A stretch of 64,000 nt of DNA from Nannocystis pusilla. GTDB taxonomy: Bacteria; Myxococcota_A; Polyangia; Nannocystales; Nannocystaceae. Positions within the stretch are counted from its first letter, which is position 1. Each line of letters begins with the position of its first letter. The stretch spans positions 349,990-413,989 of the forward strand of contig NZ_JAIRAU010000047.1 of the NCBI RefSeq assembly GCF_020073745.1, written 5' to 3'. Position numbers and translations under genes: made by a program. The notes below the pieces were generated by a model. That model had not been told where the DNA came from, did not search any database, and saw only the letters and a program-made list of their open reading frames with translations. Shown here in pieces: positions 4,636 to 63,835 of this stretch.

Positions 4636-4700
4636 GGCATCGGATGTCTCTCTGGACATATTTTTCGGGACATGCCCGGAGAGACACGAGTCGCGGCGAG
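4636..4700. repeat. palindromic repeat element of the TGTCTC/GGACATG family
   Basis: TGTCTCTC-TGGACATATTTTTCGGGACATGCCCG-GAGAGACA forms a nested hairpin. It is followed by GGCTCAATCGACC, the same string found in the 1730-1912 array. Sits just 3' of the lipoprotein gene end (4704). Confidence 0.5.
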
Positions 4701-4703
4701 GGC

Positions 4704-5732
4704 TCAATCGACCCCGCAGTAGCGCAGCGCGCAGCTCGGTGGGGTCGGCAGACGGTACATGACGAACGGCCCGCAGTTCTGCACGGCGATCGGGGCCTTG
4801 AAGTGACAGGTCTCGCCTTCCCAGTGGAAGCAGACCTCGCGGGCGACCACCCCGTCGGCCTCCGAGGGCTCCTGTCCGTTGAGCCAGCCGGGCGCGTGGG
4901 TCCCGCACGAGAACATCGGCGGCGCGGTGGTCGGCATGCGCGAGCCCGCCGAGCCGACGAAGCGCGACCACTTGCCCTCCGGCGGCAGAGCGAGGTCGCA
5001 CTCGACCTCCTCGATCTGCGACGCCACGTTGCGGCCCGGCTGCGGCAGCGCCACCGCCTGACTGCACTCGCCGGGCAGGTCCTCGGTCAGGCAGGCGTTG
5101 CAGCCGTCGCCCGCGGTCTGGTTGCCGTCGTCGCACAGCTCGCCCTCGGCCGCCTGCAGCACGCTGTCGCCGCAGCGGGGCGCGAGCGCCGAGCAGCCGG
5201 GCGCGCAGCCCTCGTAGCTGTTGTCGTTGATCTTGTCGTCGCACACCTCGGCGCCGGCGCGCACGAACCCGTCGCCGCAGAACGCCTGCTTGCACGTCGA
5301 CGGGCAGTCGTCGGTGTCGCTCGAGTTGCCGTCGTCGCACTCCTCGCCGTCCTCGACCACCCCGTTGCCGCAGTCGCTCGGCGGCGAGGTCGTCACGGTG
5401 ATGGTCGTCACCGTGAAGGTCTCGGTCGGGAAGGTCGTGAAGGTCGGGTCCGTGAAAGTCGGGTCCGTGATGGTGACGGTCGGCTCGATCGTGTCGGTCG
5501 GCTCGATCGTCGTCGGTGGGTCGATCGTCGTCGACGGATCGATCGTCGTCGGCGGCAGCGTGTCGGTGACCGTCGTCGGCAGCGTGTCGGTGACCGTGTC
5601 GGTAAGCGTATCGGTGATGGAGGTGGAGAGCGTGTCCGTGGTGTCGATCTTGATCGCGAAGCAGCCCGCGGCGAGGTGCGCAAAAACAATCACCCACGTC
5701 TCCAACCGCCATCGTCTACAAGCGAGTAACAT
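4704..5732 (-). CDS. lipoprotein with Myxococcus cysteine-rich repeats
   Basis: Lipobox LAAGC after a hydrophobic leader. Thr/Asp-rich linker (TDTLTDTVTDTL…). Three repeats of the C..CGDG…EECDDGN…GDGC.aC type. Cys-rich C-terminal domain. Confidence 0.8.
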   Translation of the reverse strand: MLLACRRWRLETWVIVFAHLAAGCFAIKIDTTDTLSTSITDTLTDTVTDTLPTTVTDTLPPTTIDPSTTIDPPTTIEPTDTIEPTVTITDPTFTDPTFTTFPTETFTVTTITVTTSPPSDCGNGVVEDGEECDDGNSSDTDDCPSTCKQAFCGDGFVRAGAEVCDDKINDNSYEGCAPGCSALAPRCGDSVLQAAEGELCDDGNQTAGDGCNACLTEDLPGECSQAVALPQPGRNVASQIEEVECDLALPPEGKWSRFVGSAGSRMPTTAPPMFSCGTHAPGWLNGQEPSEADGVVAREVCFHWEGETCHFKAPIAVQNCGPFVMYRLPTPPSCALRYCGVD

Positions 5733-5752
5733 AGGCTTTCAAAGTTACTCGC
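5722..5752. promoter_or_regulatory. perfect 9-bp inverted repeat GCGAGTAAC-N13-GTTACTCGC spanning the lipoprotein start codon
   Basis: Locally AT-rich. One arm lies in the 5' leader and the other covers codons 2-4 (TTA CTC GCT) of the 4704-5732 gene. The loop contains GAAAGCCTATG, i.e. the putative SD and ATG. The site is in the divergent promoter region shared with the DUF1592 gene. Confidence 0.45.
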
Positions 5753-5896
5753 GCGCCCCGTACCCGTGCAAGGCCGACCCGTCGCTCAGGCGCGCCCGGG
5801 GTCTTCGTCACGCGATCGCGCGCGATCGGTGGCGACACCGCTGCGGCTTTTCGGAGTCAGTTGACAGCCGGCGGGCCGTGGCGCATCGAGGCCTGA

Positions 5897-8029
5897 ATGA
5901 CGAGGCACACGCACCGCCCATGGTTCGGGGTCGCGCTCGGGCTCGTGTGGTTGGCCGGCTGTCCGAGCAGTCCGACGGCCAACGACACCGACTCCGACGC
6001 GGTCACGACTGGTAACACGATGTCGTCGCCGACCGGCGTGCCCACCGAGGGCACCGGAGACACCGACGAGCCGACCGCCGGCGACCCGACCGAGGGCGAC
6101 GCGGTCGACCCCGGGCGTGTCACCGTCCACCGCCTCAACCGCACCGAGTACAACAACACGGTCAAGGACCTCCTCGGCACCGCGCAGCGGCCCGCCGACA
6201 GCTTCCCGGCCGACGACTTCGGGCTCGGGTTCGACAACATCTCCGACGTCCTCAGCACCTCGCCGCTGCAGGCCGAGCTCTATGAGCGGGCCGCCGAAGG
6301 TCTGATCCTCGAGGCGATGAAGATCCCGATCACCGACCCCGGCACCTGGCAGATCGAGGCCGAGGACGCGCTCGCCTCGGTCGGCGGCGCCACCAGCGGG
6401 GGCTGGAACCTCTACAGCAACGGCGAGGTGTACCAGACCATCGAGCTGCCCTACGACGGCCAGTACAAGTTCAGCGCCCGCGTCTGGGGCCAGCAGGCCG
6501 GCCCCGACCTGCCGCACATGAACCTCACCGTCGATCAGGCCCCGGTGGCGATGTTCGACGTCGAGGCGGTGCAGAACGGCGCCCAGGTCTACGAGATCAC
6601 GATCGACGCCACCGCCGGCGTGCACAAGTTCGCGGTCGAGTTCACCAACGACTACTACGACGAGCCGAACATGGCCGACCGCAACCTGATCGTCGACTGG
6701 TTCAAGGTCGAGGGTCCGATCGACCTGGTGCAGGGCGACAACCCGCTGCGCACGCGGATCATGATCTGCGACCCGGACACCGACGGCGAGGAGGTCTGTC
6801 TGCGCCAGATCTTGAGCGCCTTCACCGAGCGCGCGTGGCGACGCCCGGTCACCGGCGCCGAGCTCGACGCGCTGATGCAGTTCGTCGCCGACGCCAAGGC
6901 GGCGGGCGACACCTGGGAGGCCGGCCTCCGCGTCGCCCTGCAGGCCGTGATGGTCTCGCCGTACTTCGTCTACCGCGTCGAGCTCGACCCGGCGCCGACC
7001 GACCTGACGCCGCACCCGCTCACCGACTTCGAGCTGGCCTCGCGCCTGTCCTACTTCCTGTGGAGCAGCATGCCCGACGACGAGCTGTTCGCGGCGGCCA
7101 GGGCCGGCGCGCTGCAGGACCCCGTCGAGCTCGAGGCCCAGGCCCGGCGCATGCTCGCCGACGACCGCGCCCGCGCGCTGATCGACAACTTCGCCGGGCA
7201 GTGGTGGCTCATCCGCAACATCGCCGTCGCGTTCAAGGACGTCGCCATGTACCCGCAGTGGAACGACGCCATGCGCGAGTCGATGCGCACCGAGATGAAG
7301 CTGTTCGCCGAGACCTTCTTCTCCGCCGACCGCGACTTCCTCGACATGCTGACCGCCACCGACACCCACGTCGACGCCACCCTCGCCGCCCACTACGGCA
7401 TCGAGGGCCAGTTCGGGCCCGAGTTCGCCGAGGTCGACTTCGGCGAGCTGCCGTTCCAGGGCATCCTCAACAAGGCCGGCCTGATGACGGTGCTCTCGCA
7501 CGCCGACCACACCTCGCCGGTCAAGCGCGGCAAGTGGGTGCTCGAGAGCCTGCTGTGTCAATCGCCGCCGCCGCCGCCGCCGGGCGTCGACACCAAGCTG
7601 AACCCGATCGAGGGCAAGACGCAGCGCGAGATCCTCGAGGCCCACCGCGACAAGCCCGAGTGCATCGGCTGCCACGTCACCATGGACCCGCTCGGCTTCG
7701 CCCTCGAGCACTACGACCCGCTGGGCGCCTGGCGCGACCTCGACAACGGCCTCCCGATCGACGCCACCGGCACCCTGCCCAACGGCACGCCGTTCGCAGA
7801 CGGCCTCGAGATGCAGGCGTTGATCGCCGCCGAGCCCGACTTCCTGGCCTGCGTCGCCCGCAAGACCTTCATCTACGCCCTCGGGCGCGCCGTCGGGATC
7901 AAGGACACTCCGTACCTCGACGACATCACGACCGACTTCTCGGCCGAGGACCGTCGCTTCTCCGACCTCGTCGTCTCGCTCGTCACGAGCGACGTGTTCC
8001 GCATGCGCCGCGGCGACCCCGCGATGTGA
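5897..8029 (+). CDS. DUF1592/DUF1587/DUF1588-family protein (PSD1-like, haem-binding CxxCH), lipoprotein
   Basis: Lipobox LVWLAGC. HRLNRTEYNNTVKDLLG motif typical of DUF1587. CIGCHVTMDPLGFALEHYD (CxxCH) typical of DUF1588/1585. Canonical partner of the following DUF1552 gene. Confidence 0.75.
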   Translation: MTRHTHRPWFGVALGLVWLAGCPSSPTANDTDSDAVTTGNTMSSPTGVPTEGTGDTDEPTAGDPTEGDAVDPGRVTVHRLNRTEYNNTVKDLLGTAQRPADSFPADDFGLGFDNISDVLSTSPLQAELYERAAEGLILEAMKIPITDPGTWQIEAEDALASVGGATSGGWNLYSNGEVYQTIELPYDGQYKFSARVWGQQAGPDLPHMNLTVDQAPVAMFDVEAVQNGAQVYEITIDATAGVHKFAVEFTNDYYDEPNMADRNLIVDWFKVEGPIDLVQGDNPLRTRIMICDPDTDGEEVCLRQILSAFTERAWRRPVTGAELDALMQFVADAKAAGDTWEAGLRVALQAVMVSPYFVYRVELDPAPTDLTPHPLTDFELASRLSYFLWSSMPDDELFAAARAGALQDPVELEAQARRMLADDRARALIDNFAGQWWLIRNIAVAFKDVAMYPQWNDAMRESMRTEMKLFAETFFSADRDFLDMLTATDTHVDATLAAHYGIEGQFGPEFAEVDFGELPFQGILNKAGLMTVLSHADHTSPVKRGKWVLESLLCQSPPPPPPGVDTKLNPIEGKTQREILEAHRDKPECIGCHVTMDPLGFALEHYDPLGAWRDLDNGLPIDATGTLPNGTPFADGLEMQALIAAEPDFLACVARKTFIYALGRAVGIKDTPYLDDITTDFSAEDRRFSDLVVSLVTSDVFRMRRGDPAM

Positions 8030-8059
8030 CCACCACCCCAACTTCCCGGAGACATCACG

Positions 8060-9418
8060 ATGCCGCGTCGTTTTTCACTCTCGCGCCGTACCCTCCTGGG
8101 CGGGGCCGGTGCCCTGATCGCCCTGCCCTGGCTCGAGGCCATGGCGCCCGCCGGACGGCGGGCTCGCGCGGAGGAGCCCATGGGCCCGCCGCTGCGCGCC
8201 CTCTTCTACTACCTCCCCAACGGGATCCACATGCAGTCGTACACGCCCGCGACCGAGGGCCCGGGCTTCGAGATCACGCCGATCCTCTCGCCGCTCGTCG
8301 ACCCGCAGGCGATGGTCGACCTCAAGGGCGACATCCTGGTCCTGACCGGCCTGCAGAACCTGCCCGCAAAGCCAGAAGGCCCGGGCGACCACGCCGGCGG
8401 CACGTCGGCGTTCCTCACCTGCACGCACGTCACCAAGTCCGAGACCGACATCAACAACGACATCTCGATCGACCAGGTGATCGCCAACGCGATCGGCGAC
8501 GCCACGCCGCACCGCTCGCTGCAGTTCGGCACCGCCAACGGCGCGACCATGGGCAACTGCGACAGCGGCTACAGCTGCGCCTACACCAGCAACATCTCGT
8601 GGGCCGACGCCAAGACCCCGCTGCCCAAGCTGTACGACCCGCAGGTCATCTTCGACCTGCTGTTCTCCGGCTTCGACCCCGAGGCGACCGCCGAGGAGCA
8701 GGCCAAGCGGCGCGCCAACCGGATCAGCGTCATCGACTACGCCACCGGCCAGGTCGAGTCGCTGCAGACCAAGCTCGGCAAGACCGACCGCGACAAGCTC
8801 GACCAGTACCTCACCGGCCTGCGCGACCTCGAGAAGCGCCTCACCGCCGAGAACACCGAGGCGGTGTGCTCGCTGCCGGCGATGTTCTCGGGCGCCTACC
8901 CCGACTTCACCACCCACGTCGACCTCATGACCGAGCTGATGGTGCTGGCCTTCCAGTGCGACCAGACCCGCATCATCACGTTCATGCTCGAGAACGCCGG
9001 CAGCTACCGCGACTACTCGTTCATCGGCGCCCAGGGGGCGCACCACGAGATCTCGCACCACATGGACAACCCGGACAACTTCGCCAAGCTCGAGATCATC
9101 GATCGCTGGGAGATGGTCCAGTTCGCCAAGCTGCTGCAGAAGCTCAAGACCTCCCCCGAGGGCGACGGCACGCTGCTCGACAACTGCGTGGTGTTCCTGT
9201 CGTCCGAGATCAGCGACGGCAACGCCCACAACCACACCAACCTGCCGGTGCTGCTGGCGGGCCGCGCCCAGGGCCAGCTGACGCCCGGACGCCACGTGAA
9301 GTACGGCGACAACCCGCCCCTCGCCAACCTGTTCGTCTCGATCGCCGAGATGTTCGACGTGCCCATGGCCGGCTTCGGCGACGACGGCACCGGCGCGCTG
9401 CCGAACCTCAAGGTGTGA
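8060..9418 (+). CDS. DUF1552 family protein with twin-arginine signal
   Basis: SRRTLLGGAGALIALPWLEAMA Tat-like leader. Length and composition are typical of DUF1552, the partner of DUF1592 proteins. Confidence 0.75.
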   Translation: MPRRFSLSRRTLLGGAGALIALPWLEAMAPAGRRARAEEPMGPPLRALFYYLPNGIHMQSYTPATEGPGFEITPILSPLVDPQAMVDLKGDILVLTGLQNLPAKPEGPGDHAGGTSAFLTCTHVTKSETDINNDISIDQVIANAIGDATPHRSLQFGTANGATMGNCDSGYSCAYTSNISWADAKTPLPKLYDPQVIFDLLFSGFDPEATAEEQAKRRANRISVIDYATGQVESLQTKLGKTDRDKLDQYLTGLRDLEKRLTAENTEAVCSLPAMFSGAYPDFTTHVDLMTELMVLAFQCDQTRIITFMLENAGSYRDYSFIGAQGAHHEISHHMDNPDNFAKLEIIDRWEMVQFAKLLQKLKTSPEGDGTLLDNCVVFLSSEISDGNAHNHTNLPVLLAGRAQGQLTPGRHVKYGDNPPLANLFVSIAEMFDVPMAGFGDDGTGALPNLKV

Positions 9419-9429: not shown

Positions 9430-9495
9430 GTGTACTTTTGAACATGCTCGAAGGAGCATGCCCTCGTGGGCATGCTCCTTTGAACATGCCCCCGC
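9430..9495. repeat. cluster of CATG-centred palindromes (GAACATGC / GGAGCATGCCC) between convergent genes
   Basis: TTTGAACATGC direct repeat x2. Hairpins CATGCTC-GAAG-GAGCATG and GGAGCATGCCC-TCGT-GGGCATGCTCC (11-bp arms). Locally lower GC. Between the DUF1552 stop and the glmM stop. Confidence 0.55.
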
Positions 9496-9501
9496 AGACA
9501 G

Positions 9502-10857
<1,356 letters not shown>

Positions 10858-15253: not shown

Positions 15254-15412
15254 GTCCTCCACGCTACCAGGGGCCTCCTCCTGCGGGAAGCACACAACGG
15301 CCGGTACAGAGCGTTTGGCGAAGATTGACAGCGTTGAGGTCGCTCGGCCGCAGACAAAAAAAATCGGGGTGCCTCGGCCCCGAAGCACCCCGAACCTCGC
15401 GCGAAAAACTCC

Positions 15413-17187: not shown

Positions 17188-17751
17188 CTAGGACGGGTAC
17201 TTGGCGTTGTAGCGCTTGACGAGCTCGGTCGTGATGTCGAGGCCGGGCTCGACGAACAGCACGGTCGAGTCGTCGCGGATCAGCACCAGGTCGACGTTCT
17301 TCTCGGCGGCCAGCTTGTCGATGAGCGTCTGGCAGTTCTTGTAGATGTCCTCGAGGACACGCGACTCCTGCTGCGAGAGCTCCTGCTGCATGGTCATGTA
17401 GATCTGCTGCATCTCCATGTACTCCTTCTGCAGCGCCTCCTCCGCGGCGGCGAGCTTGTCGCCTTGCAGGTTCTTCAGCTTGCCGGTGTCGGCCTCGAGC
17501 TTCTTGCGCTTCTGCTCGAGCTTCTCCTGCTTGGCCTTGGAGCTGTCCTCGAGCTTCTTGCGCGCGGCCTGGCCCTGCTTGGTGTCGGCGAGGACCTTTT
17601 GCATGTCGACGACGGCGACGCCGCGGACCTGCGGGATGGTGGCCTGGGCGGGCGTGACGAAGCTGGGGGCGAGGCCGGCGCCGCCCGCGAAGGCGAGCGC
17701 GACGGCGGCGGCGGAGAGCAGACGACCGAGACGACGCTGGGGGGTAGGCAT
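17188..17751 (-). CDS. skp: OmpH/Skp family periplasmic chaperone (paralog 1)
   Basis: Signal peptide, Lys/Gln/Glu-rich coiled-coil body, and conserved C-terminal LVL…D.T..L.. segment. Start taken at MPTPQRRLGRLLSAAAVALAFAG. Confidence 0.75.
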   Translation of the reverse strand: MPTPQRRLGRLLSAAAVALAFAGGAGLAPSFVTPAQATIPQVRGVAVVDMQKVLADTKQGQAARKKLEDSSKAKQEKLEQKRKKLEADTGKLKNLQGDKLAAAEEALQKEYMEMQQIYMTMQQELSQQESRVLEDIYKNCQTLIDKLAAEKNVDLVLIRDDSTVLFVEPGLDITTELVKRYNAKYPS

Positions 17752-44626: not shown

Positions 44627-44677
44627 GTCCGCCGGAAGCAGGCGCGGCCGCGGCTTTCTGCGCTAGGCTGCGCCCGC

Positions 44678-45733: not shown

Positions 45734-45744
45734 TCCGCCTGTCC

Positions 45745-45835: not shown

Positions 45836-45841
45836 CCGACC

Positions 45842-46831: not shown

Positions 46832-46835
46832 CAGC

Positions 46836-47305: not shown

Positions 47306-47317
47306 TGCACGCCGCGG

Positions 47318-48172: not shown

Positions 48173-48173
48173 C

Positions 48174-53578: not shown

Positions 53579-54901
53579 GTGCTACACCTCCACGCCGTGT
53601 CGACCGAGCGCGATGACGACGGCCTGATGTTGCCGCCCCTGGACGAGCGTCGCACCCTGCTCGACCAGCTCGTCGCGCTCGTCAAGGCGCGTGGTCCGGC
53701 GCCGCTGCTCGTCGCGCCGCTGCTCGAGCCCAGCCCGCGTTTCTTCCCCGATCGCTGGCAGGGCGGCGACGGCAGCCTGCGCCGGCTCGTGCGGCGCCTG
53801 CTCGGTTATGCCGGCCTCGGTCAGCTGCGCGTCGAGGTCGCCATCTACGACGCCGACCCGGCGCGACGCGGCGAGGTCCTCGGCAAGCCCAGCTCCACGC
53901 GCGGCCAGGACCTCGTCGTCTGGCTCGCCGGCATCGAGCGCGACCTCGTCAAGATCGGCGCCGAGGGTTCGGCCATGGTCGACCCGCACACCATCGTCGC
54001 CGCCGCCGCCCGCGTCGTCGCCCACGTCTACCGCCGGCACTTCGGCCTCGCCACCGGCGACGCCTTCGACCCGCGCATCGACCTCACCGGCGTCTACCTC
54101 GGCTTCGGTGTCCTCACGGCCGACGCCGCCCTGCGCTACACCGTCCGCACCGCCGCCGGCCCGATGCAGACCCGGCGCACCCCCGCGCGGCTCGGCGTCC
54201 TCTCGCCGCAGTCGCTGTGCTTTCTCCTGGCCGCGCAGCTGCACGCGCGCGCCCTCCCGCGGGCCGAGCGGCAGCGGATCGGCAAGCTCCTGCAGGCCAA
54301 CCAGGCCGCCTTCCTGCGCCACGCCTACGCCGCCCTCGACCGCGCCGAGCCGCCCGTCGCCCAGCAGCTCGGCGTCCCGCCGCAGGAGCAGTGGCCGCCC
54401 GCGCCCGACCTCGCCGCGCTCACCGTCCCGTTCACCGACGACCCCGATGCTGTCCTCGAGGCCAGGCGCGACGAGGACCCGGGCATCGCCGGCGTCAACG
54501 CCGGCAAGCCCGTCTTCCGCGTCGAGCGCAGCATGGCCGCGCGGCTCGGTCGCACCCTCGGCATGGGCGCGCTCATGCTCGGCGGCGTGGTCGCCGGCAT
54601 GAAGGGCGGCCTCCAGCTCGACGCCGGCACGATCCCCATGATCGCGCTCGGCCTCGGCGTCACCGGCCTCGTCCTCGGCCGCTTCCTCCGCGAGTCGCGC
54701 TGCTCCGAGCCGCGCTGCGGCGCCCCGCTGGCCCCCGGCGACCGCGTCTGCCCGCGCTGCCGCGGCGAGGTCGTCGGCGTCATCCGCCACCCGCGCGAGC
54801 GCCTGGCCGCCGAGGAGGCCTGGCGCCGCGCCCACCCCGAGGCCGGCGAGCCCGACCCCTCCGAGTCGACCCCGACCGTCGCCGCGCCACCTGTCTCTTG
54901 A
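53579..54901 (+). CDS. hypothetical protein with C-terminal TM helices and zinc-ribbon
   Basis: Protein-like composition throughout. TM segments (GMGALMLGGVVAGM…IPMIALGLGVTGLVLG) then CSEPRCG…CPRCRG. Start ambiguous (GTG 53579 or ATG about 53627). Confidence 0.5.
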   Translation: MLHLHAVSTERDDDGLMLPPLDERRTLLDQLVALVKARGPAPLLVAPLLEPSPRFFPDRWQGGDGSLRRLVRRLLGYAGLGQLRVEVAIYDADPARRGEVLGKPSSTRGQDLVVWLAGIERDLVKIGAEGSAMVDPHTIVAAAARVVAHVYRRHFGLATGDAFDPRIDLTGVYLGFGVLTADAALRYTVRTAAGPMQTRRTPARLGVLSPQSLCFLLAAQLHARALPRAERQRIGKLLQANQAAFLRHAYAALDRAEPPVAQQLGVPPQEQWPPAPDLAALTVPFTDDPDAVLEARRDEDPGIAGVNAGKPVFRVERSMAARLGRTLGMGALMLGGVVAGMKGGLQLDAGTIPMIALGLGVTGLVLGRFLRESRCSEPRCGAPLAPGDRVCPRCRGEVVGVIRHPRERLAAEEAWRRAHPEAGEPDPSESTPTVAAPPVS

Positions 54902-54906
54902 GACAG
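54891..54906. terminator. perfect palindrome CTGTCTC-TT-GAGACAG between convergent genes
   Basis: Overlaps the stop codon of the 53579-54901 gene and lies 20 nt from the stop of the HNH gene. Same arm sequence as the dispersed TGTCTC repeat family. Confidence 0.45.
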
Positions 54907-54926
54907 ATGAATGCGCAGCACAAGAC

Positions 54927-55748
54927 TCAGTCGACCGCACCGTGAGGTCGCGGCGCCCAGGCAAGCGCCTCCGGCGCCTGCACGAACAACCTGTGGAGCC
55001 CTGGGTGGTTTATCTGTTGGCGTCGGATCTCGTTCCACACCATGGGATGTCCCATCCGGCAGATGTCCTCAACGTCCGCGTCTAGATCGGCAAGCTCGTC
55101 TTCGTCGCGCATACGGATGTATCTCGCCAGCCGGGCAATATAGTTCCTGTGTTCTCGCATCCGAGCTCGCATCAAGCCGGGCCGATTCAGCCGCAGCACC
55201 TCGATCGTCTGTTCAGCTCTCTGTCTTTGTAGTGGGTCCAGTGATCGACGCGGCAAGATGAACCCCGTCGACAGATCCAGCATCAGCACCTCTGCGGGCT
55301 CATCCACCCTCGGATCGAGCAACAGGTCAACCCCCTGCGGTGGCTCGACGATCGGGTCTTTGGGTCCGCGTGCCACGTTGCGAACGACCCCGCCCACTAG
55401 CCGAGGAAAGTTATCGCGCTTGATTCCGTTGCAAGGACCGCACGCGTAAATGTAGTTGCGCCACGCGAACACCTCTTCAGGGAAGAGCGCCTTGGGCCGC
55501 ACGTGTTCGATCTCGTCGGCGCAGGAATCCTCGCAATACGCGCATCGCCGCTCGCCACAGCACATCGCGGCGAGCTGCCCTCTCACAGCGCGGAACACTG
55601 GATTGCCGGTCTTGTTTCGGGCCGAGAATTGCTCTCGCGCCTGCGCCACCCGCTCCTGGTACGTGGGCAACGCTGTAATCGCTTGCTGCCAGGCCGCGAG
55701 CTGGTTCGAGGCTACCTCCGGAAGTTCGAGCGCGACCAGCCGGATCAC
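54927..55748 (-). CDS. HNH-family nuclease (TIGR02646-like), candidate Septu PtuB-like effector
   Basis: CAYCEDSCADEIEHVRPKALFPEEVFAWRNYIYACGPCNGIKRD: Cys pairs flanking an HNH-type His. Region GC is markedly lower than its flanks. Begins 3 nt after the ATPase gene stop. Confidence 0.7.
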   Translation of the reverse strand: MIRLVALELPEVASNQLAAWQQAITALPTYQERVAQAREQFSARNKTGNPVFRAVRGQLAAMCCGERRCAYCEDSCADEIEHVRPKALFPEEVFAWRNYIYACGPCNGIKRDNFPRLVGGVVRNVARGPKDPIVEPPQGVDLLLDPRVDEPAEVLMLDLSTGFILPRRSLDPLQRQRAEQTIEVLRLNRPGLMRARMREHRNYIARLARYIRMRDEDELADLDADVEDICRMGHPMVWNEIRRQQINHPGLHRLFVQAPEALAWAPRPHGAVD

Positions 55749-55751
55749 AGC

Positions 55752-57077
55752 TCAACCTTCCTCTTCAGTCAGATCATCCTGATGTACCGGTAGTGTCCGG
55801 CGCAGTGCGGCACGTTCCTTCTCTTCATCGGCGTCCAGCCCTTCGTCCAGCCGCTTGACGTTGAGCTCGGCGAGGCGCCGCAGCTTCGCCTCGCCTTCTT
55901 CCGAGCGAGTCTCCAAGACCCCGAAACTCTCGGTCTCATAGGCGTCGAGGATGTCGCCATACAGCAGCCGATTCAGCTCGTCGCCGATGACCATGCGGCC
56001 CTCCTCGTCGCTCCCCGGCCGCGGCAGCCTGTACACTGACCCCTTGACCGCCGCCTGGCACACCAGGGGACTGTGTGTCGTCACCAGGAACTGCATGTTC
56101 GGGAACGACTCGACGAACCACTTGCCGACGCGTACCTGCCACGACGGGTGCAGATGGGCATCGATCTCGTCGATCAGCACGACTCCGGGGGCGATGATCT
56201 TCGTCGGGTCATGCGGCGCAAAGATGATGTCCGGGTCGTACGCAATCGAGAGCTGACGGATGAGCTCGAACGTCAGACTGAGGATCGATCGGTAGCCGTC
56301 GCTGAGCTCGCCGACTTCGATCTCATGACCATTGCCGTCCTTGAACGTCACACGCTTCTGGCTAACATCCACCAGTTGAGCCCCGTGGGGCAAGAAACCC
56401 TTCTGATTTACGAAGGCGATGAGGCGTTGCAGTAGACGACCGCTCGGTCCACCATCGCGCTGTCCAGCCCGTTCAGCTTCAAGCTGGGCAAACCGAAGTC
56501 CCTGCATCCACGCCAAACACTCAGACAGGGCGATGTCCTCACCGAAGACCGTCAGGTGGCGAGCTAGCCTTGGGTGCGAATAGTACAGTTTCTCGGCTTC
56601 CTTGTCTCCCCCCCGGAGGCGCCTGAACGGCCCGTACGAGGCCGAGAACCATCCCGAACCGCTCCCCCAAACATTCGCAACCGGCGTGTGCTTCTTGTAC
56701 TTCGTCGTTCCGAACCCATCCAGTTCGACCAAGCCACTCTCCAAACGCTCCAGCGTCAGTACGATCCAAGGGTAGGTCTGGCCTGGGCGCGGACCTCGAC
56801 CAACAAGAGGATCCCATCGCTCGCCGTCATCGCTGTAGATTAGCGTGCAGGTTCCGTCATTCTTACCGGAGCTAAGCCAGTCGCGCCAGTCTTGGCGCAG
56901 AGCAGCAGCGTCCTTTGGTCCGACCAACGCAAGCGCGATGGTCCGAAGCAGCGTGCTCTTTCCTGCACCATTCGGCCCCAGAAACACATGCCACCCCTGA
57001 CGCACTCCGGGCTCAACTCTCCACTTCAGCGCTCCGATGACGCGGATGTTCGAGATCTCGAAGCTGACGAGGTGCAT
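55752..57077 (-). CDS. AAA/ABC-type ATPase (AAA_21-like), candidate Septu PtuA-like
   Basis: Walker [14 protein letters not shown], signature-like LSDGYRS, Walker B VVLIDEIDAHLHP, H-loop VTTHSP, and an acidic coiled-coil C-terminus. No TOPRIM or other fused nuclease domain. Low-GC segment. Confidence 0.75.
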   Translation of the reverse strand: MHLVSFEISNIRVIGALKWRVEPGVRQGWHVFLGPNGAGKSTLLRTIALALVGPKDAAALRQDWRDWLSSGKNDGTCTLIYSDDGERWDPLVGRGPRPGQTYPWIVLTLERLESGLVELDGFGTTKYKKHTPVANVWGSGSGWFSASYGPFRRLRGGDKEAEKLYYSHPRLARHLTVFGEDIALSECLAWMQGLRFAQLEAERAGQRDGGPSGRLLQRLIAFVNQKGFLPHGAQLVDVSQKRVTFKDGNGHEIEVGELSDGYRSILSLTFELIRQLSIAYDPDIIFAPHDPTKIIAPGVVLIDEIDAHLHPSWQVRVGKWFVESFPNMQFLVTTHSPLVCQAAVKGSVYRLPRPGSDEEGRMVIGDELNRLLYGDILDAYETESFGVLETRSEEGEAKLRRLAELNVKRLDEGLDADEEKERAALRRTLPVHQDDLTEEEG

Positions 57078-57112: not shown

Positions 57113-58210
57113 TCAACTTCGCTGGCGCACCACCCACCGCACCACCCGCCGCGCCTCCTCGGGCCTGAGGAACGCCAGGTAGCTGGCCAGCGTCAGCGGC
57201 GTGAACCACTCGACGTACATCATCAGCTGGATGCCGACGTGCATCGCCACGCCGAAGCCGAGGAACAGCCAGCGGAGGTCGGGGATCCGGCGCCAGCGCT
57301 GGCGCAGCCAGTGGGCCGCGACGAACCCGGAGAACGCCACCTCCCACACCAGCACCAGCCACGTGATCGGCCGCAGCACGAACGGCTGCAGCGACGCCAG
57401 CGCGCGCGTCAGGTCGAAGTGGCGGTTGTAGGGGCTGACCAGCGAGAAGTAGATCGCCGTGCCATCGGACTTCCAGGTCGCCCCGTGCTTGGCCAGCCCG
57501 GTCGTCGTGTACAGCACCGCCAGCTGCAGCTGCACGATCCGGCGGCACCACACCGGCACCGGCCCGCCCTTGCCGCGCCAGCGCGCGTCGAGGCTGAGCC
57601 CGCGGCCGCTCGGCATCAGCGCCAGCCACACGATCATCGCCGTGTGCAGCTGGTCGGGCATCGCGTAGAGCAGCGGGTTGCGGCCGACCAGGCTGACCCA
57701 CACCAGCGCGCTCACCAGCGCCGCCGGCCGCGTGAACAGCCCGACCAGCCACAGCACGTGCGCCACCACCCCGGCGGCGAAGATCGCCTGCACCGCCAGC
57801 GGGTCGTCGATCGAGAAGAACAGCGACCAGCGCGACGGGAACGCCTGGCGGGCGAATTCCCCGCTCAGCGGCGCCGCGCTCGAGAAGTACTCCGCCACCG
57901 CCCCGACGTGCGACAGCAGGCTGGCGGTGAACACCGCGACCAGCCCGATCCGCAGCAGCCCCAGCGCCGTCGGGTCCTCCTCCCCGGTCAGCAGCGCGTC
58001 GCGCAGGCGGGCCAGGCGTCCGTGGCTGTCCTTCACGCCCTGTCCGTTCGGACCTGTCGCTTCGACCAGCTCGTGATCATCCGCCGCCCCCGTCGTCCGG
58101 ACCTGTCCGTTCAGACCTGTCGCTTCGACCACGTCACGTTCACCCGCCCCGCGGGCTCGCGCGTCCGCCGGCCGGCTGTCCTCCGCGCCCTGTCCCTCGG
58201 ATCCTGTCAC
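57113..58210 (-). CDS. HTTM-domain (vitamin-K-carboxylase-like) polytopic membrane protein
   Basis: LGLLRIGLVAVFTASLL…, multiple TM helices, and a conserved HTTM core (…VWVSLVGRNPLLYAMPDQLHTAMIVWLALMP…). GTG start abuts the upstream gene stop. The first ~60 codons are encoded by tandem CCTGTC repeat DNA and may be non-coding. Confidence 0.65.
   Translation of the reverse strand: MTGSEGQGAEDSRPADARARGAGERDVVEATGLNGQVRTTGAADDHELVEATGPNGQGVKDSHGRLARLRDALLTGEEDPTALGLLRIGLVAVFTASLLSHVGAVAEYFSSAAPLSGEFARQAFPSRWSLFFSIDDPLAVQAIFAAGVVAHVLWLVGLFTRPAALVSALVWVSLVGRNPLLYAMPDQLHTAMIVWLALMPSGRGLSLDARWRGKGGPVPVWCRRIVQLQLAVLYTTTGLAKHGATWKSDGTAIYFSLVSPYNRHFDLTRALASLQPFVLRPITWLVLVWEVAFSGFVAAHWLRQRWRRIPDLRWLFLGFGVAMHVGIQLMMYVEWFTPLTLASYLAFLRPEEARRVVRWVVRQRS
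58030..58200. repeat. tandem CCTGTCCGTTCRGACCTGTCGCTTCGACC repeats (2 x ~60 bp plus degenerate copies)
   Basis: Seven CCTGTC cores in about 190 bp. Shares the TCGACC and GTCC-TTC-GGAC features of the arrays at 1730-1912 and 4636-4700. Confidence 0.55.
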
Positions 58211-58211
58211 A

Positions 58212-58799
58212 TCAACCTTGTCGAGCCAGCGCCGCGGCCACCATGTCGCGGACCGGCCAGCTCTTGCAGTCGACGGTGGCCAGCGGCTTGCGTTCGACCT
58301 GGCCGAGCCCGGGCTTGCCGGCGCGCACCTTGTCCGGCGGCGTGAAGCGGCGCCGCACCCGTTCGGCGACGATCTTGCGCGGCGGCTCCGGGCGGGCCAG
58401 CGCCTCGCGCACGCACACCGAGCGCAGGTACCACAGCCGGTTGTTGTTGGGCTTGTCGGGGTTCAGCACCGCGTAGAAGCGCCAGATGTCGTTGCGCGTC
58501 TTGTCCCACGCCCACGTCGTGTCCCAGCCGCTCCTGGCCTGCTCGGCCTCGGCCAGCGCCTCGCGGCGGCCGTCCGCGAACTCGGCGTAGACCGCGATGT
58601 ACGTGTGCGCGCGCGTCGGATCGGGCGCGTACATGTTCCACGTCTGGATCACGCTGATCTTCTTCAACCACTGCGCCAGCTTCGACGGCGCCCCCGCCAG
58701 CGCCGCGTTCGGCAGCACCGGCCCGACGATCAGCAGCACCAGCGCCAGCGGCAGCAGCGTGTTGTAGGCCGTCGACAACCTGTCCCAAAGACCAGCCAT
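58212..58799 (-). CDS. hypothetical membrane-anchored protein (HTTM-associated)
   Basis: 195 aa with an N-terminal TM helix (LLPLALVLLIVGPVL). Protein-like composition. Coupled to the downstream HTTM gene. Confidence 0.5.
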   Translation of the reverse strand: MAGLWDRLSTAYNTLLPLALVLLIVGPVLPNAALAGAPSKLAQWLKKISVIQTWNMYAPDPTRAHTYIAVYAEFADGRREALAEAEQARSGWDTTWAWDKTRNDIWRFYAVLNPDKPNNNRLWYLRSVCVREALARPEPPRKIVAERVRRRFTPPDKVRAGKPGLGQVERKPLATVDCKSWPVRDMVAAALARQG

Positions 58800-58803: not shown

Positions 58804-61041
58804 TCAACGCCGCCTCCGCCGGCGCGACAGCCCCAGCAGCGCCAGCGCGCCCAGCGGCGCCGCCGACCCGCCCTCGCTGCGACAGGCGCAGCTGGCCTCC
58901 GGCTCGGACGTGTGGACCTCCGGCGCGTCCGCCCCCTGCCCGGCCGTCTCCGCCGGCCCGACGTCGACCGTCACCGTGCCCTCGTCGAGGAACTCCGGCG
59001 GCACGCTGACGACCGACGTCGCGCTCGCCACCTGCTCGCCCGACGTCAGGTTGGCCAGCGCCACGTGGACCACCTCGCCGGGCCGGAACCCGCGCAGCAC
59101 CAGCTGATTGTCCGACTCGCCGAGGCGGCTGGCGACCAGCTGATGGTCCCAGTCGCCCGTCACCTGGATCACCTCGCGCACCGAGCCCTTGTTCGAGCCG
59201 TCGGGGTTCTTGTCGACCGCCGTCAGCGTGTACTCGAACTGGATCGGCGCGTCGGCCCGCTTGAGCAGCACCGCCACGCCGGCCGGGTTGCCCGCCGGCC
59301 CCGCCGTGCCGCCGAGGCGGAAGCGCACGATCACGTTGTCGGAGCCCTGGGGCACCTCGTGGCGCAGCTGCATCGGCCCCGGGAAGAACGGCGTGACCGC
59401 GGTCGACTTGCCGCGCAGGTACAGCGACGCGCCCGCCGCCACCTTGTCGGGGTCGGTGTGGACGCGCGGGCAGTCGTACAGCCCGCGCGCGTCGAAGGCC
59501 CGGACCAGCACGTCGATGTCGCTCTCGGTCCACTCGCCGCGGGCCAGCCCCTCCTCCGCGATCTCGAGCACCGTCAGGCTCGCCGTCTCGAGGTCCGCGT
59601 CGCTCGGCAGGCGCGGCAGCAGCTCGAAGATCACCGGGTCCATCTTCTCGCGCCCGATCCGCTTGCGCGCCGCCCACATCGCGCCCATGAACGGCTCGCC
59701 GTCGTTGTGCACCTGGCCGACGATGTTGTCGGGGCAGCGCTTGGTGTTCTCCGCGTTGCGGATCGCGTTGCCGTAGCCGGGCCAGAAGCGGGCCACGTAG
59801 TCGCCGAGCAGCGGCTCGTTGGCGAGGATCACCGAGAAGTAGTCGGCGATCGCCTCGTTGAGCCCGCCGGCGTCGTTGAGCACGCCCTCGGCGCGCAGCG
59901 TGCGGTCGCCGAGCCCGTCCGGCGTCAGCAGCGAGACCATCCCGTGCCCGAGCTCGTGGTAGACCACGTCGCCGTCGTAGCCGAAGTCGACCGCCGCGCC
60001 CTGGCCGAAGATCATCGTCGGCCCCTTCTCCGGGTCGCAGGTGTTGGTCCAGTAGGCGTTGTTGAGCGGCGTGTAGTCGAGGTCGGGGTACGCGGTCGAC
60101 AGCTCGGTCGTGCGGTAGTTGGCGAGCATCGTCGACAGCTCGCACTTGAACGCGTCGACGCCGAAGCGCTTCATCTCGTCGATGAAGCGCTCCGCGTTGT
60201 AGTACATCGACAGCTCGGCGTAGAGGTCGTCGTCGTCGGCGTTGTCCGCGGGGAAGATGACGTCGGGCAGCGGCAGGAAGAAGTCGCCGTTCTCGTCCGA
60301 CTCCGCGCGGTGGACCGCGTAGCACTTGCCCTCGGCCCACCACGGCTGGATCTGGTCGTCCGGCGGCGCCTCGAGCGTGCAGTTGAACGAGCGGATCCTG
60401 TCGCCCTCGAGCGGCTGCCCCGGGCCCGTGGCGTGGATGCCCGCCAGCTCGACCTCGACGGGCACCGGCGTCGACGCCGGGTTGGTCTTGAACACCCGCG
60501 CCCTGGACGACCGCACGTGCTCCCACTCGTCGAGCACCACGCCCGAGCTGGCCGACACCCAGATCGTCTTCTTGCTCGGCTCCGGGTCCCACTGCAGCGG
60601 CAGCTCGACCTCGTAGGCCAGCACCGGCTCGCCGAGGATCAGCTTGTAGACCAGCGTGCCCGGCTCGTCCGGCCCCTCCGCGTTCGCGTGGGCCGCCGCG
60701 ATGTCCTCCGCCTCCGCCGCGTCGATCCGCGCCTCCGCGGGCATCAGCTGCGGGCCGACGCGCGGCCGCTGGAAGGCGGCCTCGCGCTCGCCTGTCCCTT
60801 CGGACAGCACCGTGGCGAACGCCCCGCGCACCGGCAGCCCGTGCAGCGTGTACGACTTGTGCGCGATCGTCAGCGAGCCGCCGCGCAGCGCCATCGGCAG
60901 CGCGCGGTCCTGGGCGGCCGCCAGCTCCGGCGGCGCCGCGGCGGCCGTGTGCGGCCACGCGAGCACCAGCCCGAACCCGAACCCGAACCACCGCAAGCTC
61001 CGCGCGATCGTCATGAGCGCTCCTGCCGAGGCCATCAGCAT
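58804..61041 (-). CDS. M36 (fungalysin-like) zinc metallopeptidase with MYXO-CTERM sorting domain
   Basis: Signal peptide. HExxH in VVYHELGHGMV. Fungalysin-type catalytic domain length. C-terminal CACRSEGGSAAPLGALALLGLSRRRRRR is the Cys, hydrophobic segment, Arg-cluster pattern of MYXO-CTERM. Confidence 0.8.
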   Translation of the reverse strand: MLMASAGALMTIARSLRWFGFGFGLVLAWPHTAAAAPPELAAAQDRALPMALRGGSLTIAHKSYTLHGLPVRGAFATVLSEGTGEREAAFQRPRVGPQLMPAEARIDAAEAEDIAAAHANAEGPDEPGTLVYKLILGEPVLAYEVELPLQWDPEPSKKTIWVSASSGVVLDEWEHVRSSRARVFKTNPASTPVPVEVELAGIHATGPGQPLEGDRIRSFNCTLEAPPDDQIQPWWAEGKCYAVHRAESDENGDFFLPLPDVIFPADNADDDDLYAELSMYYNAERFIDEMKRFGVDAFKCELSTMLANYRTTELSTAYPDLDYTPLNNAYWTNTCDPEKGPTMIFGQGAAVDFGYDGDVVYHELGHGMVSLLTPDGLGDRTLRAEGVLNDAGGLNEAIADYFSVILANEPLLGDYVARFWPGYGNAIRNAENTKRCPDNIVGQVHNDGEPFMGAMWAARKRIGREKMDPVIFELLPRLPSDADLETASLTVLEIAEEGLARGEWTESDIDVLVRAFDARGLYDCPRVHTDPDKVAAGASLYLRGKSTAVTPFFPGPMQLRHEVPQGSDNVIVRFRLGGTAGPAGNPAGVAVLLKRADAPIQFEYTLTAVDKNPDGSNKGSVREVIQVTGDWDHQLVASRLGESDNQLVLRGFRPGEVVHVALANLTSGEQVASATSVVSVPPEFLDEGTVTVDVGPAETAGQGADAPEVHTSEPEASCACRSEGGSAAPLGALALLGLSRRRRRR

Positions 61042-61167: not shown

Positions 61168-62658
61168 GTGCGCCCCTCGATCGGTCCGCGCCTCGCCATC
61201 GCCGCCGCGCTCGGCGTGTGCTGCCTCGCTCCGCCCACCTCCGCGGCGGGACCTGCCGCCGATCCCGCGCCGGCCGCCGCCCCTGCCGACCTCGCGTCGC
61301 AGATCGACCTCCTGCTGCAGGCCAAATTCCTGGCGCGCGCGCGCGTCGGCCTGCTCGTCGTCGACATGGCCACCGGCGCTCGCCTCTACGAGAAGAACCC
61401 CGACCTCGGCCTCAACCCGGCCAGCAACATCAAGCTCGTCACCACCGCCGCCGCGCTGTCGCTCCTGGGGCCCGAGCACCGCTACGTCACCCGCGTCTAC
61501 GCCAAGAAGGGCGCGCTCAAGGGTCACACCGTCGACGGCGACCTCTTTCTCAAGGGCGGCGGCGACCCCTCGCTCGTCACCGCCGACCTCTATCAGCTGG
61601 CCAGCGACCTGCGCGCCCTCGGCGTCACCAAGGTCACCGGCGGCCTCGTGCTCGACAGCACCGCCTACGACCGCGACGAGCTGCCGCCGCTGTTCGATCA
61701 GAAGGACGAGCTGGCCTCGTTCCGCGCCCCCGGCGGGGCCACGGCCGTCAACTTCGGCACCTACGTCGTCCTCGCCCGCCCCGGCCCCGGCGAGGGCGAC
61801 CCGGCGATCGTCGCCATCGACCCGCCGGTCCCCTCGCTCAAGCTCAAGGCCAACACCGCCACCACCGCCTCCGGCGCGCGCAACCAGCTCAAGCTCGCCA
61901 TCGGCACCAACAAGGACGGCGTCGTCGAGATCGCGGTCGACGGCACGATCGGCAAGGACGCCGCGCCGGCCGAGTACCGCTACCCCGTGGCGAAGCCGGC
62001 CGAGTACGCGGGCGAGGTGTTCCGCCTGGTCCTCAAGCAGCGCGGCGTCAGCCTCGGCCGCAGCGCGGTCAAGTTCGAAGCTGTCCCCGAGGACAGCGAG
62101 CGCCTGGCCCTGGTCCGCTCCGAGCCGCTCAGCGTGCTGGTGCGCAGCGTCAACAAGCTGTCCAACAACTACGTCGCCGAGCACATCCTCAAGAGCCTCG
62201 ACGACCACGCGCCCGCCACCTTCGCCGGCGGCCTCGCGCGCGTGCGCACCTGGCTCGAGGGCCTCGGCGTCGGCGTCGACGGCTTCGTCTACAAGAACGG
62301 CTCCGGCCTCTACGACGCCAACCGGATCAGCGCCGCGCAATTGGTGCAGCTCCTGATCGCCGTGCACCGCGACTTCCGCTTCGGCGCCGACTTCCTCGCC
62401 TCGCTGCCGATCGCCGGCGTCGACGGCACCCTGCGCTCGCGCATGCAGGAGGGGCGGGCCGCCCGGTTCGTGCGCGCCAAGACCGGCTCGCTCGACGGCG
62501 TCTCCACCCTCTCGGGCTACGCCGGCGCGGTCGGCCGCCCCCCGCTCGCCTTCGCCATCCTCTTCAACGACCTCGACGTGTTCGCCGCCCCGCAAGCGCG
62601 CGATCTCCAGAACCAGATCGCCGAGCTGCTCGCCGGCGCCGTCGCGGCCCGGCCCTGA
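61168..62658 (+). CDS. dacB: D-alanyl-D-alanine carboxypeptidase/endopeptidase (PBP4, peptidase S13)
   Basis: Signal peptide, SNIKL (SxxK), SNN, and KTGS motifs in order. Confidence 0.85.
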   Translation: MRPSIGPRLAIAAALGVCCLAPPTSAAGPAADPAPAAAPADLASQIDLLLQAKFLARARVGLLVVDMATGARLYEKNPDLGLNPASNIKLVTTAAALSLLGPEHRYVTRVYAKKGALKGHTVDGDLFLKGGGDPSLVTADLYQLASDLRALGVTKVTGGLVLDSTAYDRDELPPLFDQKDELASFRAPGGATAVNFGTYVVLARPGPGEGDPAIVAIDPPVPSLKLKANTATTASGARNQLKLAIGTNKDGVVEIAVDGTIGKDAAPAEYRYPVAKPAEYAGEVFRLVLKQRGVSLGRSAVKFEAVPEDSERLALVRSEPLSVLVRSVNKLSNNYVAEHILKSLDDHAPATFAGGLARVRTWLEGLGVGVDGFVYKNGSGLYDANRISAAQLVQLLIAVHRDFRFGADFLASLPIAGVDGTLRSRMQEGRAARFVRAKTGSLDGVSTLSGYAGAVGRPPLAFAILFNDLDVFAAPQARDLQNQIAELLAGAVAARP

Positions 62659-62697
62659 CCACTATCGCCTGCCTGAGCCCGGTGTTAGCCTGGCGCG

Positions 62698-63741
62698 ATG
62701 AAGCACGCCGCCCTCGTCCTCGGAGCGCTCCTCGCCGGCGCCCCGCTCACCGCTCGTGCCACCGTGTTCGAGGACGGCAACAGCGCCGCAGCCCCGCAGG
62801 ACGCTCCTCCGCCCGGCTGGGACGCGCTCAGCCCGCAGCAGCAGGAGAAGCTGGCCCAGCTCGACGAGGCCGGCCTGCAGGCCCTGGGCGGCAAGATCGA
62901 CCGCGGCGAGGCCCTCAGCGACGACGAGAAGATGATCGCCGAGGGGCTGGCGATCCTCATGACCGCCGAGTTCGACGGCAAGCTGAACTATCAGACAGGT
63001 GACATCCCGCTCGGCTCCGGCCTGGCGACCCTCCACCTCGGCACCCAGTACCGCTTCCTCGGCCCTGCCGACGCCCGCCGCGTCATCGAGGAGGCCTGGC
63101 ACAACCCGCCCGGCGAGCAGCCGCTCGGCATGATCGTCTCGGCCGACCTCAGCCCGGCCCACCCGCGCGGCTGGGGCGTCATCGTGTCCTACGTCGAGGA
63201 GGGCCACGTCGACGACGCCGACGCCGCCAGCATCGACTACGACGAGCTCCTGGCGCAGATGAAGGAGGCCACCGAGGCCGAGAACGAGTCGCGCAAGGCG
63301 ATGGGCTTCCCGGCCATGCACCTGGTCGGCTGGGCCGAGCCGCCGCACTACGACCAGGCCCGCCACAGCCTCTACTGGGCCAAGGAGCTCGGCGGCGACG
63401 AGGGCGGCGAGAACTCGCTCAACTACGCCGTACGCGTGCTCGGCCGCAAGGGCGTGCTCGAGCTCAACGCGGTGTCCGGCATGACCCAGCTGGCCGACAT
63501 CAAGCCCGAGATGGAGAAGATCTACGGCCTCGTCGAGTTCGACAGCGGCAACCGCTACGGCGACTTCAACCCCGACCTCGACACCGTCGCCGCCTACGGC
63601 ATCGGCGGCCTCATCGCCGGCAAGGTCGCCGCCAAGGCCGGCCTGTTCGCCCTCCTCGCCAAGGGCGGCAAGTTCATCGTCCTCGCCATCGTCGGCCTGT
63701 TCGCCGGCATCCGCGCCTGGTTCACGCGCAAGAAGGAGTAG
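62698..63741 (+). CDS. DUF2167-like membrane-anchored protein
   Basis: Signal peptide, a 250-aa soluble domain, and two C-terminal TM helices ending in a basic tail (…AGIRAWFTRKKE). Confidence 0.55.
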   Translation: MKHAALVLGALLAGAPLTARATVFEDGNSAAAPQDAPPPGWDALSPQQQEKLAQLDEAGLQALGGKIDRGEALSDDEKMIAEGLAILMTAEFDGKLNYQTGDIPLGSGLATLHLGTQYRFLGPADARRVIEEAWHNPPGEQPLGMIVSADLSPAHPRGWGVIVSYVEEGHVDDADAASIDYDELLAQMKEATEAENESRKAMGFPAMHLVGWAEPPHYDQARHSLYWAKELGGDEGGENSLNYAVRVLGRKGVLELNAVSGMTQLADIKPEMEKIYGLVEFDSGNRYGDFNPDLDTVAAYGIGGLIAGKVAAKAGLFALLAKGGKFIVLAIVGLFAGIRAWFTRKKE

Positions 63742-63744
63742 CCC

Positions 63745-63835
63745 TCTCGGGCATGTCTCTGCGGACATGCCCCCTGGGCCATGCGCCATCAGACATGTCC
63801 TTGTAGACATGTCCTTCGACGCCGCGGATTCAACC
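63745..63835. repeat. CATG-centred palindrome cluster immediately after a stop codon
   Basis: GGGCATGTC-TCTGCG-GACATGCCC hairpin with 9-bp arms, then the tandem AGACATGTCCTTG x2. Confidence 0.55.

Follow-up and report, generated by a model that had tools for sequence, protein, structure and literature searches.

Repetitive extragenic palindromic (REP) elements are imperfect palindromes of ~20–40 nt with a conserved GTAG-type 5′ head, and the gene of their Y1 transposase (the REP-associated tyrosine transposase, RAYT) is flanked by the repeats. Here we describe a family of 14-bp palindromic units in a 64,000-nucleotide stretch of the Nannocystis pusilla genome (contig NZ_JAIRAU010000047.1, positions 349,990–413,989; this whole stretch is hereafter called the window), which is related in kind to REP elements, uptake sequences and HIP1 repeats but is apparently undescribed, full-text literature searching having returned no account of it. 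Like REP elements and the bacterial interspersed mosaic elements (BIMEs), the family is short, palindromic, lineage-specific and present in hundreds to thousands of copies, and it occupies 3′ spacers and convergent gaps as regularly spaced, strain-variable arrays that could form hairpins in DNA or RNA. It differs in that a unit measures only 14–20 bp and abuts its neighbors in a 14-bp register, whereas REP/BIME arrays alternate Y and Z units with linkers; in that it has neither a GTAG-type head nor compensatory changes; and in that single units are strongly enriched within genes, as REPs are not.

Other comparisons each capture a part of the pattern. The short tandemly repeated repetitive (STRR) heptamer arrays of heterocystous cyanobacteria are likewise made of short tandem units dispersed through the intergenic DNA of one lineage, but these units are non-palindromic 7-mers and are not known to be enriched singly in genes. 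The operator arrays of ribbon-helix-helix proteins (the metboxes of MetJ, the heptads of omega) consist of abutting units whose period equals the unit length and which are bound cooperatively by dimers; they offer a mechanistic precedent for a phased lattice, although those are small sets of operators close to promoters, or plasmid centromeres, and not thousands of arrays at gene 3′ ends. The highly iterated palindrome HIP1 (GCGATCGC) of cyanobacteria is extremely frequent within a single lineage, in genes as well as outside them, and is propagated by substitution, and its function, long unclear, has been linked to methyltransferases and DNA transfer; in contrast to the present unit, it is a contiguous 8-mer that lacks a spacer, phased arrays and a preference for 3′ spacers. 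To our knowledge, phased tandem arrays have not been described for any uptake sequence or HIP. The DNA uptake sequences (DUS) of Neisseria and the uptake signal sequences (USS) of Pasteurellaceae share with the family a lineage-specific density of ~1 copy per kb that includes coding regions, yet they are asymmetric and mostly single words, whereas in this family enrichment is limited to the paired, bipartite palindrome, which also forms tandem arrays. DUS occur in spacers and, with reading-frame preferences, in genes; they are found as inverted repeats just past stop codons, and they come in lineage "dialects" (PMC2397512).

A rigid unit in a 14-bp register

First, the family reduces to one rigid unit. 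The original prediction had singled out seven loci of the window as related palindromic elements; the sequences at all seven are as it gave them, and all belong to one family, the unit of which is TGTCY-N4-RGACA, extended in a 20-bp scoring matrix to the symmetric consensus ACMTGTCC-N4-GGACAKGT, from which a GTAG-type asymmetric head is absent. A scan of a genome collection, seeded with a 21-mer from two window loci, returned at least 120 loci; among the matches listed, about 10 genomes of Nannocystis or Nannocystaceae account for 37, and the other 83 are scattered one-offs consistent with chance. These 37 loci and the window together make up the 354 kb from which statistics for the genus were taken. 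There, TGTCY and RGACA are separated by four nucleotides in 166 cases and by each other distance from 0 to 13 in none or one. The lattice extends beyond one unit, with spacers of 18 (29 cases) and 32 (15 cases), direct periods of 14, 28 and 42 (115, 37 and 33 cases), and 77 instances in which RGACA directly abuts TGTCY. Three of the window loci, read in phase, are tandem arrays with a 14-bp period, and because units abut head to tail in this register, the GGACATGTCC "cores" are their junctions. By cluster size, there are 213 singles, 76 doubles, 35 triples, 16 quadruples and some larger clusters of up to 7 units, and some arrays carry a higher-order period on top (64 bp in array A, 63 bp at 58024–58217, ~73–76 bp in loci L025 and L126).

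Could such a family arise by chance, or as a compositional artefact of a genome of 72% GC? CTGTCYC, one of the two motif types originally proposed, is by itself at expectation in the window (28 vs 21.6), as this explanation would have it; GACATGYC, from the other type, is enriched (16 vs 3.9), and the actual unit is the bipartite palindrome. Exact units (TGTCYNNNNRGACA) number 14 against 0.11 expected, and RGACATGTCY 3 against 0.10. With the matrix trained on loci outside the window only, 65 matches in the window reach 10 bits or more, where shuffled sequence gives 1.75, and 45 reach 14 bits or more, where it gives 0.4; the latter amount to ~1 per 1.4 kb, and single units overall to ~1 per 1–1.5 kb. 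These unit counts and matrix matches, along with 7 units in genes where 0.4 are expected and a single sharp spacing with its lattice, refute the compositional explanation, the probability of which we put at practically nil, and they confirm the family as real.

Two further attributes of the original prediction did not survive. UUCG-like loops had been noted for some copies, but the four-nucleotide spacer is mixed across the 166 units (CTTC 9, GAAG 8, many others), among which there is no conserved tetraloop. The shared flanking string GCTCAATCGACC has just two copies in the window and is absent from all 128 loci retrieved, and hence is not a feature of the family.

The unit also appears within repeat stretches of 400–760 bp at four loci (L023 5934–6534, L019 6697–7456, L025 6119–6594 and L108 1367–1811), which have a higher-order repeat such as ACCTGTCCGAGAGGCCAGCC (6 copies and a variant) and may be non-coding satellites or uncalled low-complexity genes. 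When viral contigs were scanned for two abutting perfect units, the one match was an uninformative tandem duplication within a coding region.

Units within genes

Second, the unit is not strictly extragenic. Missed by the original prediction, seven exact units lie in well-supported genes of the window (starting at 1345, 17346, 21037, 25048, 35425, 60793 and 62082), on a gene map drawn from GC at third codon positions (GC3). When synonymous codons were shuffled within each gene, keeping protein and codon usage (200 shuffles), 0.41–0.44 units were expected and 3 at most were obtained. In the genes of three relatives, taken from independent database gene calls, 3, 5 and 3 units were counted against 0.32, 0.14 and 0.10 expected, while a fourth (L125) had 0 against 0. 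The excess of ~16–20 times, even over synonymous-codon shuffles, belongs to the paired unit: the half-site alone (GGACA/TGTCC) is not in excess in genes (88 vs 94 expected), nor is GGACATG (7 vs 6.9), and versions with an N3 or N5 spacer are lacking from the window genes. In-gene units fall in preferred reading frames and, 14 bp not being a multiple of 3, they are not insertions and must have arisen by substitution. The unit in the FAD oxidoreductase gene, for instance, has imperfect versions in the orthologues of L126, L127 and L121; its palindrome is completed in the window by a non-synonymous Pro-to-Thr codon change (CCA to ACA).

A sequence with these habits might be a genomic "watermark" in the manner of DUS or HIP1, a word recognized by a receptor, methyltransferase or repair enzyme and maintained by molecular drive, with biased uptake, recombination or repair carrying it into genes and spacers. 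The density of strong matches is near the DUS spacing of ~1.1–1.5 kb, and the excess just past stop codons, as inverted repeats, also recalls DUS (PMC2397512). Entry into genes via codon choice and preferred reading frames, restriction to one lineage, and the lack of any match of at least 14 bits in the low-GC Septu island of the window are what such a word would display as well. But enrichment is seen for the paired 14-mer and not for the half-site by itself, whereas known uptake sequences are asymmetric 9–12-mers, mostly single, and phased arrays have no known counterpart among them or in HIP. Literature searching found nothing relevant on whether Nannocystis is competent, has a receptor for this word or methylates it, and there is no methyltransferase gene among the window genes. 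On balance, we regard a watermark of the known kind as rather improbable.

Unit-like DNA can further be followed into protein sequence. The RarA tails G-P-E-G-Q of L121 and L127 are encoded by unit-like DNA, and the T-S-P-K-G-Q-P coding repeats of the window (Table 1) look like unit-like DNA translated as a low-complexity protein tail. Such C-terminal tails (TSPKGQP, ASPKGQG, GPEGQ) were seen at 52828–53325 and 51072–51168 of the window, at L121 11330–11389 and at L127 8870–8913, where unit-like palindromes encode them with rare codons (AGT, GGA); this suggests either an extension of open reading frames (ORFs) into 3′ arrays or an in-frame capture of arrays. The three-unit lattice at 23149–23196 stays in frame because 42 bp equal 14 codons.

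Arrays at the 3′ ends of genes

Third, arrays and single units differ in where they are found. Arrays of at least three units are located in 3′ spacers, often starting 2–10 bp past a stop codon, and at 59–61% GC they are AT-richer than the genome (72%), as the original prediction had it. Its proposed bias toward 3′ intergenic positions also holds: units are present in 5 of 5 convergent but 1 of 5 divergent gaps of the window (p = 0.048), and, with seed gaps excluded, in 13 of 26 convergent, 28 of 124 tandem and 5 of 38 divergent gaps of the Nannocystis loci (50%, 23% and 13%; convergent vs divergent, p = 0.002). Likewise, the density of GACATGTC per kb falls from 2.65 between convergent genes to 1.25 between tandem and 0.21 between divergent ones, and is 0.17 in coding sequence.

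In the window, no more than one unit touches a divergent gap, a weak one with the sequence TGACC-GCAA-AGACA at 3845–3864. It overlaps the start codon of a DUF423 gene, and its conservation extends over three genomes (L121 9431; L127 6919).

Hairpins without covariation

Placement of this kind invites an explanation at the level of RNA, in which the arrays form 3′-end hairpins that act as factor-assisted bidirectional terminators without a U-tract, or as barriers to 3′-exonucleases like the REPs of E. coli. Units begin 2–10 bp past stops and occupy every convergent gap of the window, palindromy yields the same hairpin from either direction, and array position is kept while sequence turns over, as with terminators. 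In addition, both strands fold far better than shuffles (z from −2.5 to −7.8): −4.8 on the plus and −2.9 on the minus strand for array A, −2.5 and −4.7 for array B, −7.4 and −7.8 for array C, and −3.1 and −4.9 for array G. Better-than-shuffle folding is what any array of palindromes must show.

Would selection for a hairpin have left its mark on the stems? The original prediction had suggested a test for covariation of the arms; no compensatory covariation was found at any of the five stem pairs in three tests. Stem pair 5 (CG 94, CA 37, TG 31, TA 4) matches independence; stem pair 3 has 11 Watson–Crick double variants where 12 are expected, and no pair is in excess; and lattice neighbors chosen blind to their own sequence gave 548 paired cells against 520 ± 19. 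Half-sites thus vary independently. Neither do the units have polarity relative to transcription: there is no strand bias in tandem gaps (G-U 12 vs C-A 10), and loops are symmetric, with 29 pyrimidine-rich and 31 purine-rich. An apparent excess of decay in the 3′ half (35 vs 14) was set aside, as it fell to 20 vs 11 gaps once repeated copies were counted once (p = 0.15).

Intrinsic termination leaves a different signature in this genome. No array has a U-tract, and a terminator scan of the window calls none of them, while it finds a canonical hairpin with a T-run at 15364–15393 (−), 3′ of a small ORF; a second such hairpin lies at ~34290–34325 (−), 3′ of rpsO and upstream of pnp. Both are unrelated in sequence to the family, and Nannocystis therefore also uses ordinary intrinsic terminators. 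Rfam at gathering thresholds gave no matches. Of the bidirectional terminators originally proposed, then, the folding of both strands stands and the terminator features do not. Against RNA hairpins in general, any GC-rich hairpin would do, whereas the same 8-bp arm recurs throughout the family; some arrays (58024–58217; L019 4798) consist of direct repeats only, without a pairing partner; and the ~16-fold enrichment within genes puts units where terminators would do harm. We therefore consider a primary role in RNA unlikely.

Lineage range and turnover

Fourth, the family is confined to Nannocystis and its close relatives. As originally proposed, it is a genome-dispersed, lineage-specific palindromic family with BIME-like clusters; the non-Nannocystis loci among the matches listed have the seed match only. 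Further relatives, among them L121, L125, L126 and L127, were reached through RarA homologues. Units are present in L122 and L123. Metagenomic relatives with RarA 79–87% identical carry units, whereas L125 (RarA 71% identical; an 11.1-Mb genome) has no unit in 21 kb.

Between relatives, arrays keep their position, yet their composition is fluid. In gap A, the window (226 bp) and L126 (182 bp; RarA 96% identical) carry unrelated arrays, and in L127 and L121 the RarA and oxidoreductase genes overlap, the unit-like DNA being the RarA tail. Since these two hold unit-like DNA there, read as the RarA C-terminal tail, the idea of a clean gain at gap A in the window lineage was revised. Gap B has units in all four relatives (including L126, L127 and L121), with differing number and sequence. 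A closer comparison is afforded by locus L088 of N. radixulma, which is 97% identical to window 40334–48426 (~8 kb). Array D and its orthologue there are of equal length and differ by 14% substitutions (15/107 bases), against 5.5% at codon position 3 and 4–6% in other spacers; the array thus evolves 2.5 times faster than synonymous sites (p = 0.001). Its outermost units, beside both stop codons, are conserved between the two. The array center (45760–45805) is hypervariable, mostly by transitions, and AT-richer in L088.

This fluidity would suit purely selfish elements of the REP/BIME type, copied by a Y1 RAYT-like transposase or another mobilizing enzyme and without host function. The units are lineage-specific, high in copy number and clustered in 3′ spacers; close relatives differ sharply in unit number and sequence (gap A, window vs L126); array D outpaces neutral sites; and there is higher-order tandem amplification like that of BIME-2. 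Set against this, in-gene units arise by substitution, insertion being excluded by their length of 14 bp; the GTAG-like head is missing; and arrays are retained at given gaps from one relative to the next and do not turn up at random sites. No transposase was seen among 12 ORFs with units on both sides or among the window genes, a sample (~350 kb of ~12-Mb genomes) too small to count as a negative. Literature searching on RAYTs in myxobacteria gave nothing relevant. The REP/BIME likeness drawn in the original prediction accordingly applies to the 3′ bias and the clustering, and fails for the head and for the strictly extragenic placement, given seven exact in-gene units. A purely selfish origin seems to us distinctly unlikely.

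A putative reader of duplex DNA

We favor the reading, with a probability of roughly 0.4, that the unit is a sequence-specific site recognized on duplex DNA by a symmetric protein, and that arrays have multiplied through local duplication at places that tolerate them. Rigid spacing, independently varying half-sites, full symmetry, creation in genes by codon choice and depletion on the promoter side together point to such a reader. A symmetric, presumably dimeric, protein would read the unit much as host proteins bind REP/BIME. Isolated sites would arise and persist by point substitution wherever coding sequence permits, and long arrays would expand and erode in 3′ spacers through slippage or duplication nearby, these spacers being perhaps the only places where they disrupt neither genes nor promoters. 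Palindromy also means that an array would give rise to hairpins in transcripts running into it from either direction; as a by-product, these may hinder read-through or protect 3′ ends.

Several points weigh against a duplex-DNA reader. The protein is putative, deduced from patterns in the sequence, and descent from a common master could mimic sequence constraint without any reader. A sequence-specific reader of RNA hairpins would leave the same symmetric, non-covarying pattern, since both strands encode the same hairpin. The pace of array D relative to synonymous sites speaks against strong purifying selection at the level of the single unit within an array. Finally, the 37 loci were picked by motif presence and their GC3 gene calls are crude, so that some bias may remain in the occupancy figures even with seed gaps excluded.

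A bolder extension, which we hold to be doubtful, takes TGTCC-N4-GGACA as a genome-wide self-recognition word of the Nannocystis lineage, recognized by a putative dedicated dimeric reader and carried through coding and non-coding DNA by molecular drive. The reader would then be an uptake or transfer receptor, a methylase, a repair enzyme or a nucleoid protein, and the phased 3′-end arrays would form cooperative protein–DNA roadblocks or topological barriers between convergent genes. If true, the word would be a bipartite, array-forming counterpart of DUS and HIP1, not yet described in any bacterium.

Arrays, units and neighboring features of the window

The units are set in a region whose gene content is typical of a myxobacterial core chromosome, including rimP-nusA-infB-rbfA-truB-rpsO-pnp, bamA-skp-fabZ, prfB, purF, purC, dut, glmM and folP, along with genes for DUF4215 and DUF1552 proteins. 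Their coordinates are collected in Table 1.

Table 1. Arrays, single units and unit-derived coding repeats in the window
Feature	Position	Strand	Description
Array A	1728–1912		226-bp gap of convergent FAD oxidoreductase (336–1688 +) and RarA/MgsA (1915–3279 −)
Array B	4642–4689		Three units in 14-bp register (4642, 4656, 4670)
Array C	9439–9503		4–5 variant units GAGCATGCCC / GGGCATGCTC in 14-bp register
Array D	45737–45826		Six units in 14-bp register
Single unit ACCTGTCTCTTGAGACAGAT	54889–54908		21.3 bits
Degenerate array	58024–58217		CCTGTCC-type units in 14-bp register, inside 63-bp higher-order repeat
Array G	63748–63819		Five units in 14-bp register
Single unit in FAD oxidoreductase gene	1342–1361		Exact unit
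Single unit in skp/ompH gene	17343–17362		Exact unit and matrix match
Single unit in bamA, residue 24	21034–21053		Exact unit and matrix match
Three weaker units	23149–23196		14-bp register; acidic low-complexity linker of MacB-like permease ORF
Single unit in MacB/FtsX-type permease gene	25045–25064		Exact unit and matrix match
Single unit in truB, TruB_N domain	35422–35441		ACATGTCCTTCAGGACATCC, 26.8 bits, best single unit of the window; reads D-V-L-K-D-M
Coding repeats T-S-P-K-G-Q-P	52951–53192	+	DNA ACCAGTCCCAAGGGACAGCC, a one-mismatch unit
Single unit in 736-aa M4-like peptidase gene	60790–60809		Exact unit and matrix match
Single unit in S13 D-Ala-D-Ala carboxypeptidase gene	62079–62098		Exact unit and matrix match

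Array A is composite, with at least six units (matrix matches at 1728, 1776, 1792, 1818, 1839 and 1855) and a 64-bp repeat present in 2.4 copies according to TRF. Array B ends 14 bp before the stop of a minus-strand DUF4215 gene (4704–5732). Array C, which includes a 13-bp perfect hairpin, fills the 83-bp gap between the convergent DUF1552 (8060–9418 +) and glmM (9502–10857 −) genes, and array D lies in a 108-bp gap between the convergent genes 44678–45733 (+) and an epimerase (45842–46831 −). In the single unit at 54889–54908, the stop codon TGA (54899–54901) of the gene 53579–54901 falls partly in the spacer and partly in the first bases of the second arm. The degenerate array sits in the spacer that separates two genes on the minus strand, or else in the N-terminal part, itself doubtful, of an HTTM ORF, and array G begins 7 bp past the stop of a DUF2167 gene (62698–63741 +).

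Some neighboring features were observed alongside. Next to array B lies a GC-rich non-coding stretch of ~400 bp (4243–4640) with a 52-bp tandem repeat in 2.1 copies (4271–4379); at its position L121 and L127 have a ~420-aa gene with a faint DUF8252 match and L126 a 330-aa gene, and the stretch may be a gene remnant or a deletion. Directly adjoining the single unit at 54889–54908, in a convergent gap, is a low-GC island (54927–57077; 61% vs 72%) that holds a complete Septu defense pair by PADLOC, PtuA (55752–57077, E = 2.6e-144) and PtuB (54927–55748, E = 1.3e-89); its one matrix match is weak (11.7 bits, at 55045). Among the relatives, a convergent gap of the more distant L122 (13081–13346) contains a separate repeat family of ~80 bp in 3 copies (cgttcgcggtcggcatggcatgcggcgcggg...), and in the metagenomic L123 a Type ISP restriction-modification gene (5715–8954; N6_Mtase and Type_ISP_C) adjoins the RarA locus.

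Implications

Dispersed short repeats are known from many bacteria, few of them with an established reader or function. The Nannocystis family combines traits that are usually separate, namely REP/BIME-like arrays at gene 3′ ends and DUS/HIP1-like enrichment in genes by codon choice. Owing to its clean grammar of one rigid palindrome, one register and, by extrapolation, thousands of copies, its putative reader should be fishable by DNA pull-down or DNA affinity purification sequencing (DAP-seq). The unit is a marker for Nannocystis DNA in metagenomes, and its arrays pose a risk of errors in genome assembly and gene calling, and of trouble in cloning, for a genus that is explored as a source of natural products. 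For the organisms themselves, the family seems to feed low-complexity PxGQ-repeat tails into proteins.

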